Positions 2,596 to 55,154 of a stretch of 64,000 nucleotides of DNA are shown one piece after another. A program made the translations under genes and the position numbers. This stretch comes from a virus. The notes below the pieces were generated by a model that worked only from the letters and a program-made list of their open reading frames with translations, searched no databases and was not told the origin of the DNA. The stretch lies in the UHGV virus genome UHGV-1364441; one strand, written 5' to 3'. Every line of letters begins with the position of its first letter. Within the stretch, counting starts at the first letter, position 1.

Positions 2596-2872
2596 ACGTC
2601 GAGAACCAGCTAAAGCGCCTAAGGCTACTGATCCGGAACTTGAGCGAAGAATTGAAGAGTTCGCCAGCAAAGCGGATTTAATCCCGGATGAAATTACAAC
2701 GGGGAAGGTGCTTGATAAAGATGCGCCGCGCGACTTTAAATCCATACGCGTGAGCTTTAATGAATATGAGTACGGCGTACTCGATGATTTAAGCAAAAAA
2801 CTGAACCGCAGCAAATTGAACTTGATTCGGCATGCAATCCTCATGTTAGCGGAGTCTGAGGAAGCAAAATAA
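2588..2872 (+). CDS. Ribbon-helix-helix centromere-binding protein (ParG/ParB-like partner of ParA)
   Basis: Overlaps parA 3' end (GTG start); C-terminal RHH-like segment IRVSFNEYEYGVLDDLSKKLNRSKLNLIRHAILML after a basic disordered N-terminus. Confidence 0.5.
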   Translation: MIKRREPAKAPKATDPELERRIEEFASKADLIPDEITTGKVLDKDAPRDFKSIRVSFNEYEYGVLDDLSKKLNRSKLNLIRHAILMLAESEEAK

Positions 2873-2894
2873 TGTCTTTCAGGTTGGTTTTAGA

Positions 2895-3000
2895 ACTTAA
2901 AAATTCTTGAATCAAAGGTGTACCAATGTAGCACCGATTTGGTGCACCTTTACATCCTTTTTGGTGCCAATTGTGTACCATATAGCACTGGTTTACTTAT
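2895..3000. repeat. Second iteron-like array downstream of the ParA/RHH operon (parC2-like)
   Basis: GGTGTACC, TGTAGCACC, TGGTGCACC, TGGTGCCA, TGTGTACCA, AGTGCTATA words of the same family as 1735-1935. Confidence 0.4.
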
Positions 3001-3140
3001 GAGCAGAAGTGGGCTTGATGAAAAAGCTCATTATTGAAATAACGATAGAAAGCAATTTCTAATCAACTAGTGGTTGTCAGCCTATTCGGCTTATAAGATC
3101 ATACGCTGTTATACGTTTTTTACGCTTTGAGGAATCCACA

Positions 3141-4802
3141 ATGAGTGAGGCAGAAGCCCGCCCGACTAACTTTATTCGTCAGATCATCGATGAAGATCTG
3201 GCAAGTGGTAAGCACACCACAGTACATACCCGTTTCCCGCCGGAACCGAATGGCTATCTGCATATTGGTCATGCGAAATCTATCTGCCTGAACTTCGGGA
3301 TCGCCCAGGACTATAAAGGCCAGTGCAACCTGCGTTTCGACGACACTAACCCGGTAAAAGAAGATATCGAGTACGTCGAGTCGATTAAAAACGACGTTGA
3401 ATGGTTAGGTTTTCACTGGTCTGGTAACGTCCGTTACTCCTCCGATTATTTTGATCAGCTCCACGCCTATGCTGTTGAACTGATCAACAAAGGCCTGGCG
3501 TATGTTGACGAACTGACGCCGGAACAGATCCGCGAATACCGCGGCACCCTGACGCAGCCGGGTAAAAACAGCCCGTACCGCGATCGCAGCGTTGAAGAGA
3601 ACCTGGCGCTGTTCGAAAAAATGCGTGCCGGTGGTTTTGAAGAAGGTAAAGCCTGCCTGCGTGCGAAAATCGACATGGCGTCGCCGTTTATCGTGATGCG
3701 CGATCCGGTGCTGTACCGCATTAAGTTTGCTGAACACCACCAGACTGGCAACAAGTGGTGCATCTACCCGATGTACGACTTCACCCACTGCATCAGCGAT
3801 GCGCTGGAAGGTATTACGCACTCTCTGTGTACGCTTGAGTTCCAGGACAACCGTCGCCTGTACGACTGGGTGCTGGACAACATCACCATTCCTGTTCACC
3901 CGCGCCAGTACGAATTCTCGCGCCTGAATCTGGAATACACTGTGATGTCCAAGCGTAAGCTGAACCTGCTGGTGACCGACAAGCACGTTGAAGGCTGGGA
4001 TGACCCGCGTATGCCGACCATTTCCGGTCTGCGTCGTCGTGGTTACACTGCGGCTTCTATTCGTGAGTTCTGCAAACGCATCGGCGTGACCAAGCAGGAC
4101 AACACCATTGAGATGGCGTCGCTGGAATCCTGCATCCGTGAAGATCTCAACGAAAATGCGCCGCGCGCAATGGCGGTTATCGATCCGGTGAAACTGGTCA
4201 TCGAAAACTATCAGGGAGAAGGCGAAATGGTCACCATGCCGAACCATCCAAACAAACCGGAAATGGGTAGCCGTCAGGTGCCGTTTAGCGGTGAGATTTG
4301 GATCGACCGCGCCGATTTCCGAGAAGAAGCTAACAAGCAGTACAAACGTCTGGTGCTGGGTAAAGAAGTGCGTCTGCGTAATGCTTACGTCATTAAGGCT
4401 GAACGCGTGGAGAAAGATGCCGAAGGCAATATCACCACCATCTTCTGTACTTATGACGCCGACACCTTAAGCAAAGATCCGGCAGATGGTCGTAAAGTGA
4501 AAGGCGTTATTCACTGGGTGAGCGCGGCACATGCGCTGCCGGTTGAAATCCGCCTGTACGATCGTCTGTTCAGCGTGCCGAACCCAGGTGCTGCTGATGA
4601 TTTCCTGTCGGTGATTAACCCGGAATCGCTGGTGATCAAACAGGGTTTTGCTGAACCGTCGCTGAAAGAAGCGGTAGCGGGTAAAGCATTCCAGTTTGAG
4701 CGTGAAGGTTATTTCTGCCTCGACAGCCGCCATTCTACGGCGGAAAAACCGGTATTTAACCGCACCGTTGGGCTGCGTGATACCTGGGCGAAGTTAGGTT
4801 AA
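3141..4802 (+). CDS. glnS: Glutaminyl-tRNA synthetase (class I aaRS), full length 553 aa
   Basis: HIGH motif (HIGHAKS), KMSKS-type motif (VMSKR), and end-to-end resemblance to enterobacterial GlnRS as I recall it. Confidence 0.95.
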
Positions 4803-7324: not shown

Positions 7325-7368
7325 CCAATTATGTTAGAAAATTCTATTCAATTATCTAACATAATTGG
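7325..7368. promoter_or_regulatory. Palindromic operator-like site: perfect 14-bp inverted repeat CCAATTATGTTAGA (16-bp spacer), upstream of the rdgC operon
   Basis: Read directly; carries the TGTTAGA core that recurs across the window. Confidence 0.55.
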
Positions 7369-14577: not shown

Positions 14578-15201
14578 ATGAAGGACGGTGTAGTGAAGTT
14601 AAGGGTTTTGGGGGCCGCGCTCGCGGCTATGCTGGGATGTGTATCTGTAAATACAGCCACTGCAACTGCGTTACCCGCACAATTCAGGGCAGGGAAGCAG
14701 GTTATGAATAATGCTGGCGGGGATCGTTCGCAGGCGGCGATATTGGACTTTTGCAAGAGGGAGGGCATCCCATTGCGGCCTGTTGGCACTCAGTTTGTTG
14801 GCAATTCTGACTTTTGCGTTTTTGCATATACAGCGTATCTGACTGATAAAGCTATAACAAAAACAGGTTATTCAACTAAAGATACTCTTGCCAGATTAAG
14901 TCAGGGATGGCAGCAATTCGAAGTGTATCGCCAGCAAGGATTAGGTGAGCTATTGCAGCCACTTTTTATGCTTGCCTTGGTGCCAGAAGGGCAGCAATTT
15001 TTGGTTAAAAAGAGAATGCTTCGCCAAAGCGATGTTGCCGGGTTCGATAGCATGATGGCTTATGAGCGCCAACTAACTGAGCAGCGCAATAAAAAACCAT
15101 CTGCATCATGTGTGCAAAGTAAAACAGCAGAATACAGTGCAGTGGCTGGTCCTTTAGCCAAACAAATGGCAGAGCAATGGTGTAAAAAGTACGGGCAATA
15201 A
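14578..15201 (+). CDS. Secreted or lipoprotein-like hypothetical protein
   Basis: N-terminal signal peptide (LRVLGAALAAMLGC...); true start may be the GTG near 14593. Confidence 0.5.
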   Translation: MKDGVVKLRVLGAALAAMLGCVSVNTATATALPAQFRAGKQVMNNAGGDRSQAAILDFCKREGIPLRPVGTQFVGNSDFCVFAYTAYLTDKAITKTGYSTKDTLARLSQGWQQFEVYRQQGLGELLQPLFMLALVPEGQQFLVKKRMLRQSDVAGFDSMMAYERQLTEQRNKKPSASCVQSKTAEYSAVAGPLAKQMAEQWCKKYGQ

Positions 15202-15221
15202 GTTACGTAGCGGAGGCAAAA

Positions 15222-15614
15222 TTGAAAAAATTAGCTATTGCTTTATTGGCTGCTTTTCCTTTGCTGGCAGACGCTGGGAATCTGCAAGTGAAATGCGGTC
15301 AGTTTGATATAAAAATCTATCCAAACGCTATATTTCTGAACGGGAATAAGGTCGATAACGCACATCGTAAAACTGAATCTGACGTAATGAGTTATGTGTT
15401 CCAGGAATATGCAGAGATGGGAGGCACTTATACGCTGTACTCGCTTGATGTTCCTTCTCGCGGTGATATGACATTATCCCATCAATGGCAGAATGCCGAT
15501 GGCGAAGCTCTGCGCGAGGTGAAGACAGAAAAATGTGGCACTTTCCATTCTTTTGAGGGTAAAGCGCCAAATGTTAAATCTGTGCTTGAAAAACAGCGTG
15601 CAGGTGAGTTTTAA
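15222..15614 (+). CDS. Secreted hypothetical protein
   Basis: Signal peptide MKKLAIALLAAFPLLADA; GGAGG RBS; TTG start. Confidence 0.6.
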   Translation: MKKLAIALLAAFPLLADAGNLQVKCGQFDIKIYPNAIFLNGNKVDNAHRKTESDVMSYVFQEYAEMGGTYTLYSLDVPSRGDMTLSHQWQNADGEALREVKTEKCGTFHSFEGKAPNVKSVLEKQRAGEF

Positions 15615-15671
15615 CCAGTATTAATTATGCCGCCCCACCTTATAGCGGAGTGGGGCGGATTGTTCCCATTG

Positions 15672-15839
15672 TTATTTTTTTCTTTTCATTTTCATGGATT
15701 GTTTACAGGCATAAGCCAACGCCTTAGCTTTCACTTCATCCAGTTTCCCTGTAATCACTTCTTTTCCGAGAGTGACAAACCAGTCATAGCAACCGCCAGT
15801 GATGTTCTGGATTTGATAATTCAGGTAGCGAACGGTCAT
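15672..15839 (-). CDS. Small protein, 55 aa (MTVRYLNYQIQNITGG...KRKK), not in ORF track
   Basis: Own translation; ATGA-coupled to an upstream 31-aa ORF. Confidence 0.4.
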   Translation of the reverse strand: MTVRYLNYQIQNITGGCYDWFVTLGKEVITGKLDEVKAKALAYACKQSMKMKRKK

Positions 15840-15931
15840 TTTGATACTCCCTCCAGTTTTGATGGGAGCAAAGAACGCAGGTTATTGCGTGAGTAGACGG
15901 TGAGTGATGGGAAAAGTTTGTAATTGTTCAT
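15836..15931 (-). CDS. Tiny ORF, 31 aa (MNNYKLFPSLTVYSRNNLRSLLPSKLEGVSK)
   Basis: Canonical AAGGAG 6 nt upstream; stop overlaps the next ATG. Confidence 0.3.
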   Translation of the reverse strand: MNNYKLFPSLTVYSRNNLRSLLPSKLEGVSK

Positions 15932-15979
15932 AGTGACTCCTTGCTTTCGAAGCCGTCACAGACTGTTCCACGGTCTGGT

Positions 15980-16046
15980 GGCGGCGCAATACAGGTTGGA
16001 ACACCGTGAGTCAACGGGGGCTTTTAGCCACCTGTATTGCGCTGCC
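15980..16046. repeat. 17-bp inverted repeat (GGCGGCGCAATACAGGT / ACCTGTATTGCGCTGCC, 1 mismatch) with 33-nt spacer
   Basis: Read directly; lies between the Ref-like gene and the small ORF pair. Confidence 0.4.
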
Positions 16047-16156
16047 ATAACTATGACATTGGCAATCATACGAAATCCTTGAGGATTTGTCTCGTTGCGT
16101 CGAGCGGTGAACCAATCTAATCAAAATGTACAATCAGTAAATTTCAAACTCAACAT

Positions 16157-16177
16157 AAAATGTTAGAAAATTAATTC
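16157..16177 (+). promoter_or_regulatory. Operator-like motif AAAATGTTAGAAAATTAATT overlapping the Ref-like gene stop
   Basis: Instance of the recurrent TGTTAGAAA motif. Confidence 0.5.
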
Positions 16178-16749
16178 ACCATTTCTTGCACCGTCTGATA
16201 GAGCGTCATCTCTTCGGCATTGTGCCGTATAAAATCTGCTTTCCCGCCTATTTTTCCATCAGCATGAACAGGAACCAACCAGGGATATTGTTCGCGGATC
16301 TCTGCTGGCGCTGCGTGCTGGTGGTGCCATTTACACAAAGGGAGAACGTATTTATGGGCATCTTTAGCCGTTCTGCCAAATATGTGGTGGAGAGATACGA
16401 CAGGGCTATGCTTCCCGTGAAGATGGCAGGCAATACAGGGGAGTTTGCCTATAGCGTCCTGTATCCGGCGCTCTTCTGCTGTGAGTGATCTCCCTTTTAA
16501 TCCGCGTGACGGGCGCGTTTTTTTGGGGAGGGCTGACGCCGCCCTCTCTCTTCTGCGCTGTTCACTTTGCCTCACTTTTTCAAGTTTCTTTTGACGATAT
16601 TCAGGCGATGCGGCTTTTTCCCTTGCGCGTTGCTGCTGGCGTTGAGCCTGCTGAAGACGTTTTGCCCTTTGCTCTTCCCGCCATTCCGGATCAGCCAGTT
16701 TTTGCATGGCTTTTTGTCTCTGTTTCTCCCAATAACTCTGTCTCTGCAT
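16171..16749 (-). CDS. Ref-like HNH endonuclease (P1 recombination enhancement function type)
   Basis: Highly basic, K/R/E/Q-rich N-terminal half; C-terminal Cys/His cluster (CIACHLHG ... HHIFGR ... LPLCKWHH). Confidence 0.6.
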   Translation of the reverse strand: MQRQSYWEKQRQKAMQKLADPEWREEQRAKRLQQAQRQQQRAREKAASPEYRQKKLEKVRQSEQRRRERAASALPKKTRPSRGLKGRSLTAEERRIQDAIGKLPCIACHLHGKHSPVVSLHHIFGRTAKDAHKYVLPLCKWHHQHAAPAEIREQYPWLVPVHADGKIGGKADFIRHNAEEMTLYQTVQEMVN

Positions 16750-39519: not shown

Positions 39520-39595
39520 TGGTGGCCCCTACCGGACTTGAACCGGTGACCGTGCGATTATGAGTCGCCAGCTCTAACCACTGAGCTAAAGGGCC
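39520..39595 (-). tRNA. tRNA-Ile2 (anticodon CAU, lysidine type) or tRNA-Met-like
   Basis: Manual fold: 7-bp acceptor stem, CCA encoded, anticodon loop CUCAUAA; close to E. coli ileX; one mismatch at the base of the anticodon stem. Confidence 0.75.
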
Positions 39596-39604
39596 AGATT
39601 ACTG

Positions 39605-39733
39605 TTAATTCCGCTTACGCTTTTTGCCAGAACCGCGTAAGGCTTTTGCCGCTTGCTCGATCCCATATGCAACCACCAGCAGAAATAAAAATGTCCAACC
39701 AGGGTTCTTATCGGCAAAGGCCCAAAAATCCAT
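39605..39733 (-). CDS. Possible 42-aa membrane peptide (MDFWAFADKNPGWTFLFLLVVAYGIEQAAKALRGSGKKRKRN)
   Basis: Own translation; one TM helix plus basic tail; weak RBS. Confidence 0.25.
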   Translation of the reverse strand: MDFWAFADKNPGWTFLFLLVVAYGIEQAAKALRGSGKKRKRN

Positions 39734-40007
39734 CACTTGCAGCTACCTTTTAAGACAAAACGCCATTGCTGTTAGATTGCGGTGCCTGGTGCCTCCAGGT
39801 GACGTTAACCAGTTAACAATTAACGCCGGGATGTTTGACTTCACTATTGAGGAAAATTGTTTTAACTGTTCCGCGTGCGCTTAGCCGCATTCACCGCAAT
39901 GGTAAGAGCACTTGGCTGGCTGGGCGGCGATGACGCCTGTACGCATTTGGTGATCCGGTTCTGCTTCCGGCATTCGCTTAATTAGCCAAATACTCTTAAC
40001 GTTGCGC

Positions 40008-40094
40008 TGGCGGAGAGTAATGGAATCGAACCATCATCGCTTGCGCAATGGGACGGTTTTCAAGACCGCTTGAGCACCATGCTCCCTACTCTCC
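40008..40094 (-). tRNA. tRNA-Ser (anticodon UGA), type II with long variable arm
   Basis: Manual fold: 7-bp acceptor, 3-bp D-stem, anticodon loop CUUGAAA, variable-arm hairpin with GCAA loop, T-loop TTCGATT, CCA encoded. Confidence 0.65.
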
Positions 40095-40478
40095 GGCCGT
40101 TGTGGTGGCCGGTACTGAATCTCCGGCATACGGTGCAGCCAATTAGGACTACGGACGATCACCGCTCGCGAAAGGGAAGGTTTGCGGCCGCATTTCCCTA
40201 ACATCCAAGAAAGCTATCGCATCAGTCTGCGAATCCACCACAACGTTGAGAACACTGGTTGTCACGCTGCAACGCAACATTTATTCGTAGATTGGGATAT
40301 GACCCCGTTACGTCAGTGTTCTCAACGTTGTAGTACCGGTTACGGTTCCGGCCAGGCCTCTTCCTCAACGGGGTATTCTCCATACGGACTACCGTTTATT
40401 GGTCGTTCCTGCGGTTTATGTTGTGAAGCCAGATGCTTATCTTCTGGTTGCTTCAAAGAGCTGCACTTCATCACAACG

Positions 40479-40552
40479 GTAAGGGTACTTCGTAGGGATT
40501 CGAACCCTCTGCCAAGCACGGCGATCTCCGACGTCGCAAAATACCCTTACCT
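40479..40552 (-). other. tRNA-like fragment or structured element (T-arm-like GGGTTCGAATCCC inside a 10-bp closing stem)
   Basis: Does not fold as a canonical cloverleaf (no D or anticodon arm in register, no CCA). Confidence 0.3.
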
Positions 40553-40559
40553 GTTGTGT

Positions 40560-40635
40560 TGGTGCCGATTAACGGACTCGAACCGCTGACATCCTGCTTA
40601 CAAGGCAGGCGCTCTACCAACTGAGCTAAACCGGC
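40560..40635 (-). tRNA. tRNA-Thr (anticodon UGU)
   Basis: Manual fold: canonical cloverleaf, anticodon loop CUUGUAA, CCA encoded. Confidence 0.85.
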
Positions 40636-40637
40636 AT

Positions 40638-40714
40638 TGGCGATGGTGGGTGGATTCGAACCACCGACCGACAGCTTAGAAGGCTGCTGCTCTATCCTAC
40701 TGAGCTACACCATC
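40638..40714 (-). tRNA. tRNA-Arg (anticodon UCU)
   Basis: Manual fold: canonical cloverleaf, anticodon loop CUUCUAA, CCA encoded; 2 nt from tRNA-Thr. Confidence 0.85.
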
Positions 40715-52663: not shown

Positions 52664-52864
52664 TCAAGTCACGATCCAATCATTACCGACTATATCAGCC
52701 GTCGATAAATCAACTTCCCGGATCTGGAGTCCATTAATACAAAACCATCCGGTAGTAGAGTAATTATCAGGCCAGGCCCATACACCAACACTCCATGCTT
52801 TACGGCGGCACACTTCAGCCTGTTCTTCCCTGATTTTTTTTACCGCCTGCATGATGTCCATCAC
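52664..52864 (-). CDS. Hypothetical protein (66 aa)
   Basis: ORF coupled downstream of the Rha-like gene. Confidence 0.35.
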   Translation of the reverse strand: MMDIMQAVKKIREEQAEVCRRKAWSVGVWAWPDNYSTTGWFCINGLQIREVDLSTADIVGNDWIVT

Positions 52865-53553
52865 TCACCTCCCCAACCGATCACCTGGAATTGCCCCATT
52901 TTTGGGTGATACCAGCGTTTTCCTCGGTGTTCAGCCTCCGACATCATCCGGTTAAAAGCATTCATGAAGGGAGATAAGGCCACGATGGATCGACGCGACA
53001 ATACCCCCTCTGGAGTTAAAAACTCATGTGTATCGGTGGGAATCCGGTAAGCGTTGACCAGGTTGCGACATTTGGCTTTGGTCAGGCCGCATTTTGCCGC
53101 CAGCTGGCGGTAGCCAATGTAGCCTTCCGGCATATTGCCTTTCTTGATTTGCTCAACGGTTTCAGCGACCTGGCTAACCTTTGACTCAACAGCATGAAGC
53201 CGCTTTTGCTGCTGAACTGCATTTGCAGCCATTGCGGCGATCTTCTCTATTTCGGTCAACGGCTGGCGTACTTGTTCTTCCAGTTCGCGCCAGCGGTCCA
53301 CCAGCCGGGCGGTGAATTCCGGAGAGAGCTGCGCAACGACAATAATGCTGTCTCGTTTGCCTTGCTCGCCTTCGAAGACGTAATAGCTCGCCGGGCGGCC
53401 TGCGGTGGGCTTTTCCTCAATTTGAGGAAAAGATATTACGCCCCGTTCCGCTAGGTGTTCAATGGTGCGTTTAACGTTATCAGGGCGCTTACCTACCAGT
53501 TCCGCGATCTCAATGCTGGTCATTGATGGCTTTTCAAGAATGCAGATATCCAT
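52861..53553 (-). CDS. Rha-family phage regulatory protein (antirepressor-like)
   Basis: N-terminal Rha/Bro-N-like HTH region; ATG 53553 with GGAGG RBS, ATGA overlap with upstream ORF. Confidence 0.65.
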   Translation of the reverse strand: MDICILEKPSMTSIEIAELVGKRPDNVKRTIEHLAERGVISFPQIEEKPTAGRPASYYVFEGEQGKRDSIIVVAQLSPEFTARLVDRWRELEEQVRQPLTEIEKIAAMAANAVQQQKRLHAVESKVSQVAETVEQIKKGNMPEGYIGYRQLAAKCGLTKAKCRNLVNAYRIPTDTHEFLTPEGVLSRRSIVALSPFMNAFNRMMSEAEHRGKRWYHPKMGQFQVIGWGGE

Positions 53554-53975
53554 CAGTGTGCCTCCGCAATTCCGGAATTGGTAATATTGCGATACCAAGG
53601 ATTAGTGTTTGGTTGTGATGAAGAAGAGAAACGGCCAGTAAGGACGCCATGTTGATCAGGGATCAGAGAACGGGCTTCTTTTTCAGTTGCGGCAATTGCG
53701 AAGTGATCACAGTGTTTTTGCAGGGAGTGGAAACGCCAGATAAATTCCGGGCGCGAGCAAGGATTGGCATTAACCATAGTTACGGCCTCATTCGTAGGTT
53801 TAACAACCTGCGCCCCGCTGCTAAACGGGTGGCAGGACGTGACGGGGTTAGCAGACTGGCACGAATGAAACCAGCAGGCCGAAGCCTCCCCATCACGCCC
53901 CACCATAATTCGGGCGTAACGTGGTTTTACGGACACAAAAATACCGCAATATCGGATATCTGCGGTTGTCCGCAT
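53553..53975 (-). CDS. Hypothetical protein upstream of the Rha-like gene
   Basis: Coupled ORF; an antisense ORF 53649-53993 competes, so the coding frame is uncertain. Confidence 0.3.
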   Translation of the reverse strand: MRTTADIRYCGIFVSVKPRYARIMVGRDGEASACWFHSCQSANPVTSCHPFSSGAQVVKPTNEAVTMVNANPCSRPEFIWRFHSLQKHCDHFAIAATEKEARSLIPDQHGVLTGRFSSSSQPNTNPWYRNITNSGIAEAH

Positions 53976-54120
53976 TCGTATTCAGGCTGCTAAACCCGGT
54001 CGCAGAATTTGCTACGACGACATGAATATAAGCCTGAAAACATGGAAGATCAACTAAAAATTTCAGCAATGGATGACTTCAGTCGATGATGCAGATCATA
54101 CATTCCGATTTAGAAACGGC

Positions 54121-54191: not shown

Positions 54192-55154
54192 TCATCCCCT
54201 AAAGCCAGCCGGGATTGACCAATCCTCACGGTCAAATTCAGACCGATAGCCACGCTGTTTCATCAGGTCAAAGGCTTCACCAATGGTTGCACACCCCTGG
54301 GAGCCAGAATAATCCATTGAGAAATCCAGGGCACTGGATTGTTTAGGCTTATTCACTGCGGTAGCGGCACTACGTATCCATGCAAATTTTTTTGCCAGCT
54401 TTTCAGCGGTACGATACAGAGCCTGCCGTTTTGTGTGCCCCTCGTCTGAACGACGCTTTGCAGCTCTCGCTTTTGCCGCCGCCAGGCAGTGGTTGGTCTG
54501 TTCTTCCCTGATTACTGTTTTTTTATCCAGTACCCCGTTATCCGTTTGAGAACTATCTGCTGGTGAAGCCTTTGGCTGAACCGCGCATGATCTTTCTCTT
54601 CTTTTGGCTATAGAGTGACTCTTATTTTCTATTGGCTGTTCATTTTGAACATGGGGGGACTTGTTCAATTTGAACAGGGGGTTCCCAGTTTCAAAAAAAT
54701 AACGAACCTTTGAAATCAACTGCTTAACCAGTTTTGTGGCGTTGGCAAATTTGATGCCCTGCTTACCCCCTATCTCCATTGCTACATGAATGAAGTGGAG
54801 AAATTGTGTCGTAAACCGATATACGTTACACACCTGGGCATTGTTATTCGCTACCTGATGTTGCTTAACAAGCATTCCGCACTTCGTCGCTTCAGCAAAT
54901 GCCCGGCGTACAGTAGAAATACTGCGTCCTGTAATCTCGGACATATCAGCATATGAGCGACGGATCATGTATTCATCGGTAGACCCTGCCAGGTTGGCGA
55001 ACTCGGCAATAATGGCGCTATGTGAAGGGGAAAGAAGACCGCTATGACGAGCAAAAAAACTCAACTGATGACCTTTGATTTTTTTGTGGTATTCAGTGTT
55101 GTTTTTATACTCAGAAGTGTTGAAAGTTACTGAAACTGAATTTAAAATATTCAT
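54192..55154 (-). CDS. Hypothetical DNA-binding protein, possibly replication-associated
   Basis: N-terminal HTH-like segment ITGRSISTVRRAFAEATKCGMLV; 320 aa. Confidence 0.45.
   Translation of the reverse strand: MNILNSVSVTFNTSEYKNNTEYHKKIKGHQLSFFARHSGLLSPSHSAIIAEFANLAGSTDEYMIRRSYADMSEITGRSISTVRRAFAEATKCGMLVKQHQVANNNAQVCNVYRFTTQFLHFIHVAMEIGGKQGIKFANATKLVKQLISKVRYFFETGNPLFKLNKSPHVQNEQPIENKSHSIAKRRERSCAVQPKASPADSSQTDNGVLDKKTVIREEQTNHCLAAAKARAAKRRSDEGHTKRQALYRTAEKLAKKFAWIRSAATAVNKPKQSSALDFSMDYSGSQGCATIGEAFDLMKQRGYRSEFDREDWSIPAGFRG

Follow-up and report, generated by a model that had tools for sequence, protein, structure and literature searches.

A putative c4-type antisense RNA switch beside ref in a D6-like phage-plasmid

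The viral genome UHGV-1364441 was analysed as one stretch of 64,000 nucleotides (nt), here called the window, which belongs to a D6-like (P1-related) phage-plasmid. This paper concerns a locus next to its Ref gene (16171..16749, minus strand), where a candidate antisense RNA of the c4 type precedes two small open reading frames (ORFs), a 31-codon leader and orf55, the gene of a 55-amino-acid (aa) protein. The region matches Escherichia coli plasmid pTB423 (NZ_CP034790) at 100% identity; phage D6 and ~110 D6-like plasmid prophages from Escherichia, Salmonella and Shigella match it at ~80%. In all, 99 of 5,426 complete E. coli genomes carry the locus. Relatives are given by locus numbers (L004 and so on) where they have to be told apart. 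The candidate RNA, its presumed targets and the ORFs, with Shine-Dalgarno sequences abbreviated as SD, are as follows.

15974..16052, minus strand: putative c4-like antisense RNA gene (match to Rfam RF01695, fold, covariation)
16030-16047 and 15979-15996, minus strand: arms of the RNA closing helix (repeat search, fold)
16019-16029, minus strand: RNA hairpin 1, GGCU-AAAA-GCC (predicted fold)
16008-16013, minus strand: loop b′ of RNA hairpin 2, UGACUC (predicted fold)
15997-16003, minus strand: single-stranded RNA segment a′, UGUUCCA (predicted fold)
15964..15970, minus strand: putative target a2, UGGAACA, the complement of a′, starting 9 nt past the closing stem
15934-15939, minus strand: putative target b2, GAGUCA, the complement of loop b′, overlapping the leader SD AAGGAG (15937-15942)
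15836..15931, minus strand: leader ORF of 31 codons, occupying the slot of icd and ending in an ATGA overlap with the 55-aa gene
15672..15839, minus strand: orf55, gene of the 55-aa protein (phrog_7786), with its own SD, GGAGGGAG

Both ORFs and an inverted repeat had been picked out from the letters alone (the sequence-only reading), and all three are present. The 31-aa ORF begins with an ATG at 15931, 5 nt from its AAGGAG, and shares ATGA with the 55-aa ORF, which ends in the lysine/arginine tail ...KQSMKMKRKK. The arms of the repeat are 18 nt long and 94% complementary (one mismatch), with 33 nt between them. The repeat is upstream in the minus-strand sense only, lying between the Ref gene and the 31-aa ORF. 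The description of the locus as unannotated holds for the RNA, for which we found no annotation in the D6 GenBank record, in the RefSeq versions of all 99 complete E. coli genomes with the locus or in plasmid pYU39_89, where the 331 nt that separate ref from the 55-aa ORF and contain the RNA are left blank. It does not hold for the 55-aa ORF, which is RefSeq hypothetical protein WP_164847206.1 and D6 orf85, or for the small upstream ORF in D6, annotated as orf86.

A permissive Rfam scan of positions 15500-16300 gave a single meaningful match, C4 (RF01695), full-length and on the minus strand, with a score of 39.7 bits (E 5.8e-6) against a gathering score of 45. The same RNA scores 40.2 bits in D6 and 38 bits in L004. 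In L036/L039 an RNA at the equivalent place, flanked by Ref and the orf55 homologue, reaches 48.1-49.4 bits, above the gathering score. The 79-nt stretch folds with a minimum free energy of -36.2 kcal/mol (z = -4.4), and none of 200 shuffled sequences folded equally well. The minimum free energy structure is that of C4: a long helix closes off two small hairpins and a stretch that stays single-stranded. GCCACCA is the 3′ end of the RNA in the window, D6, L004 and L041. The c4 RNA is a discrete molecule of ~77 nt with a tRNA-like 3′ CCA, and its 5′ end is reportedly cut by RNase P.

In an alignment of nine sequences, 92% of the cells of the 16 closing-helix pairs are paired, compared with 30-50% in slid controls, and nine of the 16 pairs show double-sided changes; the covariation score is 0.447, versus 0.05-0.12 for slid partners. 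Several pairs are G-U, and they are compatible only with the minus strand read as RNA, because a DNA palindrome or the opposite strand would have A-C mismatches at these positions. Hairpin 1 is conserved in the alignment of relatives, with no double changes, and the L043 RNA has a single internal hairpin. The repeat, which had been described as an accessory DNA feature, appears instead to be the core of the system, that is, the closing stem of an unannotated antisense RNA of ~70 nt of the phage-P1 c4 type.

The possibility that the repeat is the intrinsic terminator of ref was rejected, the arms being 33 nt apart, the 3′ flank (ACCAGACCGUGG) having no U run and the scanner finding no terminator there. 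A degenerate DNA pattern made from the 3′ half of the RNA was also abandoned; its 120 matches among genome contigs were due to chance and lay in unrelated GC-rich genomes.

The interior of the RNA was searched for perfect matches to complements in the following 110 nt. Two were found, UGUUCCA:UGGAACA at +9 and UGACUC:GAGUCA at +40, the latter inside AAGGAGUCACUAUG. As a positive control, the same search recovered the known a2/b2 and a1/b1 sites of both canonical C4 modules (window and D6), and the offsets of a2 (+6 to +9) and b2 (+36 to +40) are equal in the c4-like locus and in these two modules. The bipartite pattern TGGAACA-N15-45-GAGTCA occurs once on the two strands of the window (128 kb; 0.13 expected), at this locus. 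Whole-molecule folding of the RNA:mRNA duplex was discarded in favour of this search, because it unfolds the closing helix and is thus meaningless.

Other lineages use other letters for the same pairing. For b′/b2 these are GUGACUC:GAGUCAC in L004, GUAAGCUCC:GGAGCUUAC in L040, GGCUCC:GGAGCC in L041 and GUUGACUCCG:CGGAGUCAAC in L043, where both sides of a′/a2 are also altered jointly (GUUCCGGC:GCCGGAAC). Across lineages there are three differing b′/b2 and two differing a′/a2 pairings, mutually complementary in every case. Cross-matches between this circuit and the canonical modules do not exceed 5 nt in the SD zone, and the window loop pairs over 8 nt with a b2 of the L043 type.

The 5′-untranslated regions (5′-UTRs) of the window (15934-15955), D6, L004, L040, L041, L043 and L036 all keep GGCUCC between a2 and b2 (GGCUUC in the window). 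Folded one by one, six of the seven lineages have GGCUCC paired with GGAG(U/C)C, which sequesters the SD in a hairpin of 5-7 bp; the window uses a GUGAC/GUCAC stem. RNAalifold gave no structure on the 5′-UTRs, whose SD regions were misaligned by MAFFT. The hairpin suggests that the leader may be intrinsically poorly translated. A contiguous complement to the hairpin-2/a′ region was also seen ~50-60 nt 5′ of the RNA. It is a perfect 13 nt in L040 (~188-200; GAACACCGGGAGC), 6+6 nt in D6 (L002; ACACCG, GUCAAC) and only CACCG in the window (~16100-16112). Unlike the canonical a1/b1 layout, such a complement may act in the precursor transcript.

For the ORFs, 32 IMG/VR loci encoding the 55-aa protein were collected, and an exhaustive profile search yielded homologues at 36-55% identity, whose contigs were collected as well. 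Conservation and synonymous rates had been named in the sequence-only reading as checks on the two frames. Among 32 loci (the window, D6 and 30 IMG/VR contigs), 30 keep the leader SD, start, reading frame and ATGA stop/start overlap; the remaining two have an in-frame leader fusion (extra A) and icd in place of the leader, respectively. Between the window and D6 the leader carries indels of 3, 6 and 3 nt, which preserve the frame. The peptide itself is unconstrained, its ratio of nonsynonymous to synonymous differences (pN/pS) being 1.3 and its variable sites being distributed 2/6/2 over the codon positions, while orf55 is under strong purifying selection (pS 0.177, pN 0.012, ratio 0.07; codons 1-47, 18 distinct alleles). 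The amino acid sequence of the leader would seem to be immaterial, and only its translation to matter. Read as mRNA, the leader is rich in C and poor in G (60-nt windows contain 33-38% C and 8-10% G), a composition that would be expected of a Rho loading site.

The 31-aa ORF of the window has no NF033153, Pfam or PHROG match. In L004, L035, L040, L041 and L043 an Icd-like ORF of 61-64 aa replaces the leader behind the same SD/b2: the 61-aa ORF of L004 scores 47 bits with the Icd-like model NF033153, the gene in L035 is annotated as Icd-like, and those in L040, L041 and L043 share the Icd-like C-terminal motif, as judged by eye. The leader and the icd variant are homologous only in the 5′-UTR, in codons 1-4 (M-N-x-Y) and over the final ~10 nt, and the leader, standing in the slot of icd, may be a deletion derivative of it. 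About seven of 118 D6-group plasmids have an Icd-like ORF in this slot, an example being Shigella dysenteriae NZ_CP026808, and a full icd behind identical a2/b2 is found in Shigella and Escherichia fergusonii plasmids.

In the D6 sub-lineage a poly-G tract of variable length lies 5-7 nt 5′ of the orf55 start (L002 (D6), ~3145-3160; L051-L053, ~670-690; L054-L055, ~670-693). Tracts of G5 or G7 leave the two ORFs separate, with an ATGA overlap; tracts of G9 and G12, seen in several independent assemblies, fuse the leader in frame to orf55 to give proteins of 84 and 85 aa. The tract could be a slippage hotspot toggling between coupling and fusion, or a sequencing error at a homopolymer. In the window the tract is replaced by GGAGGGAG.

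The 55-aa protein matches phrog_7786 (unknown function) with an E value of 2e-37, and there is a weak signal for the Pfam family DUF3319 (six of eight members, best E 0.0012). No Ant, KilA or Rha domain was found with Pfam and PHROG, no defence match with PADLOC, no match in a sequence-profile search of PDB, and nothing below E 0.3 when the 55-aa model was compared with PDB and BFVD by Foldseek. AlphaFold predicts, from a diverse alignment, four strands and a long basic amphipathic C-terminal helix (confidence measure pLDDT 86.9); an all-helical, poor model from a shallow alignment (pLDDT 69) was dropped in its favour. The product is hydrophilic and predicted to be soluble, not a membrane toxin. 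We take it to be a small, soluble accessory protein that acts early or in the lytic phase and must be kept silent while the element is a plasmid; our guess is a lytic-phase or host-directed factor that would be harmful or pointless in dormancy.

The most distant orf55 homologue, P0023 (36% identity; L046-L049, ~3001-3174), lies in a long operon of small genes on the same strand. Its neighbours are Phage_Mu_gp6, pRha and DUF7740, and since this Mu-like early region lacks both Ref and C4, the orf55 family may be regarded as a mobile early-gene module. The orf55 profile also matches P0016 (1876 aa) 30 times, always with profile positions 12-24 (the N-x-T-G-G-C-Y-D-W region); P0016 is either a repeat protein or an artefact.

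Other homologues, at 36-55% identity, were found in phage-plasmids in a context of Ref, c4-like RNA and icd. The order Ref, c4-like RNA, 61-64-aa ORF, orf55 homologue is seen in three deeper lineages (L040, L041/42 and L043-45), with one extra gene before orf55 in L041; lineages that keep the order Ref, c4-like RNA, icd or leader, orf55 have orf55 identities of 49-55%. In D6 the c4-like RNA before orf86/orf85 and a canonical C4 (76 bits) before icd/ant stand in tandem. The order in L036-L039 (~2800-3420) is Ref, a1b1, C4 (48-49 bits), orf56, isrK/a1b1, a second C4 (79 bits) and, farther on, RepL, with neither leader nor icd before orf56.

Three candidate control elements lie between the Ref stop codon and the RNA.

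16156..16170, minus strand: operator-like motif TTTTCTAACATTTTA, right after the Ref stop codon and 2 nt 5′ of the -35 hexamer of the upstream promoter
16125..16153, minus strand: upstream sigma-70-like promoter, read by eye (TTGAGT 16148-16153, 17 nt, TACATT 16125-16130)
16065..16093, minus strand: RNA-proximal promoter (GAGACA, 17 nt, TATGAT), with a predicted start ~10 nt 5′ of the closing stem

Between 15550 and 16300 the scanner found, over both strands, no promoter-like site other than the RNA-proximal one. In six lineages this promoter retains (G/A)AGACA and TATGAT, TATCAT, TATTAT or TAATAT, with exactly 17 nt of unrelated sequence in between. GAGACAA was at one point taken for a degenerate b1 site; this was dropped in favour of a -35 hexamer, since in the six lineages a TATGAT-like hexamer follows at a constant distance of 17 nt. 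The upstream promoter was missed by the simple promoter scanner; the D6-like loci keep both of its hexamers, as do L040, L041 and L043, which are distant lineages, and we infer that it may function.

The motif TTTTCTAACAT(A/T)TT has 10 copies in the window at three mismatches or fewer, where 2.8 are expected and none of 100 shuffles reaches 10. The eight copies with the core TTTCTAACA (15-mers at window positions 7327, 16156, 16818, 20561, 33632, 41786, 41942 and 43192) are all intergenic, mostly just 5′ of gene starts, and flank ref on both sides. The C1-type repressor of D6-like phages probably uses the motif as its operator; the motif agrees at 10 of 14 positions with what we take to be the P1 C1 operator consensus.

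The window has, in addition, a canonical module of the immI type, ~38 kb away from the locus.

52861-54069, minus strand: canonical immI-type module (c4-a1b1, C4, Icd-like ORF, Rha-type antirepressor)
53979-54031, minus strand: c4-a1b1 motif of this module (52 bits)
53937-54018, minus strand: isrK-like match, 46.5 bits, under the 50-bit cut-off and overlapping a1b1
53825-53910, minus strand: canonical C4 RNA (71.9 bits)

Here a2, UUAGCAG, lies directly 3′ of the RNA and b2, ACGAAUGA, over the SD of the Icd-like ORF, whose stop overlaps (TGATG) the start of the Rha-type antirepressor gene (52861..53598). A possible RepL gene (54192..55154) lies 5′ of the module.

For the mechanism in P1 we follow the account of immI antisense control summarised in the passage of PMC8198154 that cites Citron & Schuster 1990. 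The present locus resembles immI of P1/P7 (c4 - icd - ant1/2) in having an RNA comparable to the processed one of ~77 nt, with a long closing helix and two exposed segments that would pair with downstream a2 and b2, a b2 that covers the ribosome-binding site of a short first ORF, a first-ORF stop that overlaps the start of the next gene, and a repressor-operator-like site with a proximal promoter upstream; the canonical copy of the window itself (53.5-54.0 kb) has equal offsets. It differs from immI in that the first ORF is a 31-codon leader without similarity to Icd, the cargo is a 55-aa protein and not an Ant/KilA/Rha antirepressor, no a1/b1 was detected upstream in the window, the pairing sequences are orthogonal to those of the canonical module, and ref, not the main immI, is the neighbour. 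The switch would work like immI, yet it would not be an immI operon in the strict sense.

With the Rfam families C4 (RF01695) and c4-a1b1 (RF03163) (Weinberg et al. 2010, PMC2864571) the RNA shares the helix/hairpin layout and the 3′ GCCACC motif, and the L036/L039 counterpart passes the threshold and is preceded by a weak c4-a1b1 match. The copies in the window, D6 and L004, in contrast, stay at 38-40 bits against 45 and have a shorter hairpin 2 with a 6-nt loop, and that of L043 has only one internal hairpin. D6-type relatives possess an isrK-like element and a second C4 directly 3′ of the 55-aa gene, which recalls the IsrK antirepressor control region of Gifsy-1 (PMC4825925); in these relatives all of them belong to a single family of phage antisense/immunity cassettes. 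In the window, unlike these, no isrK-like sequence lies beside the locus, the sole match being the one at 53.9 kb.

The coupling logic is also that of hok/mok/sok. In that system Sok RNA blocks the ribosome-binding site of the mok leader, and translation of mok is needed for that of the overlapping hok. The likeness is limited to an antisense RNA acting on a leader ribosome-binding site and to leader coupling: Sok is antisense to its target, whereas the RNA here is encoded upstream on the same strand and would act through two short loops, and the 55-aa protein is predicted to be soluble, unlike Hok, a hydrophobic membrane toxin.

We assign a probability of about 0.78 to the interpretation that the locus is a self-contained antisense-RNA switch of the P1 c4 (immI) type, separate from the main c4-icd-ant module, which would silence the leader and the 55-aa gene during dormancy of the phage-plasmid in E. 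coli. A minus-strand RNA of ~70 nt would be transcribed from a promoter of its own, with read-through from the operator-linked promoter and ref as a probable second source. Folding and covariation show that it would adopt a closing helix of 17-18 bp around two small hairpins, leaving b′ and a′ to pair in the cell with b2 and a2 on the adjoining mRNA, in keeping with the observed complementarity and co-variation. Such pairing would keep ribosomes off the leader. By analogy with c4/icd/ant of P1, where a step of Rho action and translational coupling has reportedly been described, a blocked leader would turn off the 55-aa gene through lost coupling, Rho-dependent termination or both; the ATGA overlap and the C-rich, G-poor untranslated leader RNA are our reasons for expecting the two to be shut off together. 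Production of the 55-aa protein would then be restricted to times when target transcripts exceed the RNA, in early infection or upon loss of the repressor. The locus is an unannotated, sub-threshold member of a well-known RNA family with other cargo and with a degenerate leader in place of icd; no new mechanism is involved.

Several points weigh against this interpretation. The window RNA scores 39.7 bits, under the curated Rfam cut-off of 45. The duplexes are short, 7 + 6 bp, where the canonical module has 7 + 8 bp. Across ~110 D6-like plasmids neither loops nor targets vary, and the co-variation comes from deeper lineages, four or five in number, each represented by one or two sequences. No upstream a1/b1 copy was found (no c4-a1b1 at E≤10 in 15500-16300 and no complement of at least 6 nt upstream); in L036/L039 upstream a1/b1 are present (UGGAAC, GUGAAU), with a weak RF03163 match. 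Coupling may be partial, given that the 55-aa gene has an SD of its own and, in L004, begins 60 nt beyond icd. A complement search found no convincing a2/b2 downstream of the L036-L039 RNA, before orf56, and control of orf55 would for this reason not be universal. Finally, with one RNA and one target per transcript, the relief of repression is left unexplained.

Some of these points would fit a decaying relic of a duplicated immunity module, with orf55 expressed from its own ribosome-binding site and free of antisense control. The sub-threshold score, the short pairing (6-7 bp), the SD of orf55 and the missing downstream targets of the L036 lineage agree with this, as does the replacement of icd by a meaningless leader whose icd homology is limited to the first four codons. 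A relic would not, however, be expected to maintain helix pairing through nine compensated positions, co-varying loop/target pairs, the exact promoter spacing in six lineages, an ATGA junction and frame in 30 of 32 loci while the leader peptide drifts, and invariant loops and targets in ~110 plasmids with flanks that are ~20% different; we consider decay improbable. We give very little credence to the view that the two ORFs are an autonomous toxin/antitoxin or leader/effector pair and the repeat a protein-binding palindrome or the ref terminator. Two tiny overlapping ORFs with good ribosome-binding sites, one of them with a basic tail, and a long palindrome between two genes do look like this. 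Yet the leader is under no purifying selection and is swapped for an Icd-like gene or absent in relatives, and there is no toxin-antitoxin, defence or Pfam match above the curated cut-off. A type I toxin-antitoxin system was rejected on account of the hydrophilic product and an RNA on the same strand as leader and orf55, and a type II system on account of the pN/pS values (1.3 for the leader versus 0.07 for orf55), a leader that is replaced, fused or absent, and the lack of PADLOC and Pfam toxin-antitoxin matches. As for a DNA element, no U-tract follows the hairpin (ACCAGACCGUGG), the 33-nt 'loop' contains two hairpins of which the second varies in L004 and L043, and the helix sequence varies with its pairing kept, G-U pairs included. 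The toxin/antitoxin-like pair of the sequence-only reading is thus unsupported, and its other suggestion, a leader peptide plus small effector, came near the evidence, the 31-aa ORF being leader-like and the 55-aa ORF a strongly constrained protein gene.

The RNA might, on the other hand, be real and act mainly in trans, giving immunity against superinfecting relatives with a2/b2-icd or tuning ref or other genes, with local control of orf55 being incidental. The window RNA would be able to repress the Shigella and E. fergusonii relatives with a full icd, because their a2/b2 are identical, and its loop would also pair, over 8 nt, with L043-type b2; c4 specificity reportedly sets the heteroimmunity of P1 and P7. 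Against this, the 64 kb hold no bipartite target besides the local one, the canonical module of the window is unmatched (5 nt or less in the SD zone), and the linkage of RNA, leader or icd, and orf55 is conserved in the D6-like elements and three deeper lineages, which argues for the local cargo being under control. A mainly trans-acting role seems quite improbable to us; it is compatible with the c4-type switch proposed here and does not exclude it.

Several features outside the switch complete the picture of the region.

15630..15658, strand unspecified: GC-rich hairpin, CCGCCCCAC / GTGGGGCGG, between the convergent 55-aa and 130-aa genes

The scanner places terminator-like sites on the plus strand at this hairpin, which probably is a shared transcription stop, including for the minus strand. 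The plus-strand genes that converge on the 55-aa gene (14578-15614) encode a 207-aa protein (phrog_12786) and a 130-aa protein (phrog_13864) with a signal-peptide-like N-terminus; D6 has an isrK-C4-icd-ant block in their place. Three clustered tRNA genes (39523-40714, minus strand; Rfam tRNA, 65-73 bits) are arranged as in the tRNA region of D6-like plasmids. The study of the D6-like plasmid pYU39_89 describes two c4/icd regions, one beside isrK-icd-rha and one beside repL (PMC6799933).

We suggest, tentatively and as less than likely, that D6-like phage-plasmids run several orthogonal c4-type circuits (two in the window, three in D6 and pYU39_89), of which the ref-proximal one, so far overlooked, gates a new class of small lysogeny-silenced effector, with the b′/b2 types of the lineages serving as distinct 'immunity types', comparable to the c4 types of P1 versus P7, and with poly-G phase-variable coupling in some relatives. 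Within such a scheme the 55-aa protein could be a mini-antirepressor, a host-takeover factor or an anti-defence factor, an idea that stems from the presence of its family in Mu-like early operons.

If the switch is what we take it to be, a stretch left blank by annotation pipelines in ~100 sequenced phage-plasmids of E. coli, Salmonella and Shigella would be explained. The antisense immunity logic of the P1 type would have been reused as a portable cassette for other cargo, and the leader would be a clean natural case of an ORF selected solely for being translated. The lineages of the locus would supply ready-made orthogonal RNA/target pairs. Tight silencing of a strongly conserved 55-aa protein in dormancy suggests an activity in the lytic phase or towards the host, and, D6-like elements being common in clinical and livestock isolates, their switch between plasmid and lytic states would be of practical interest.

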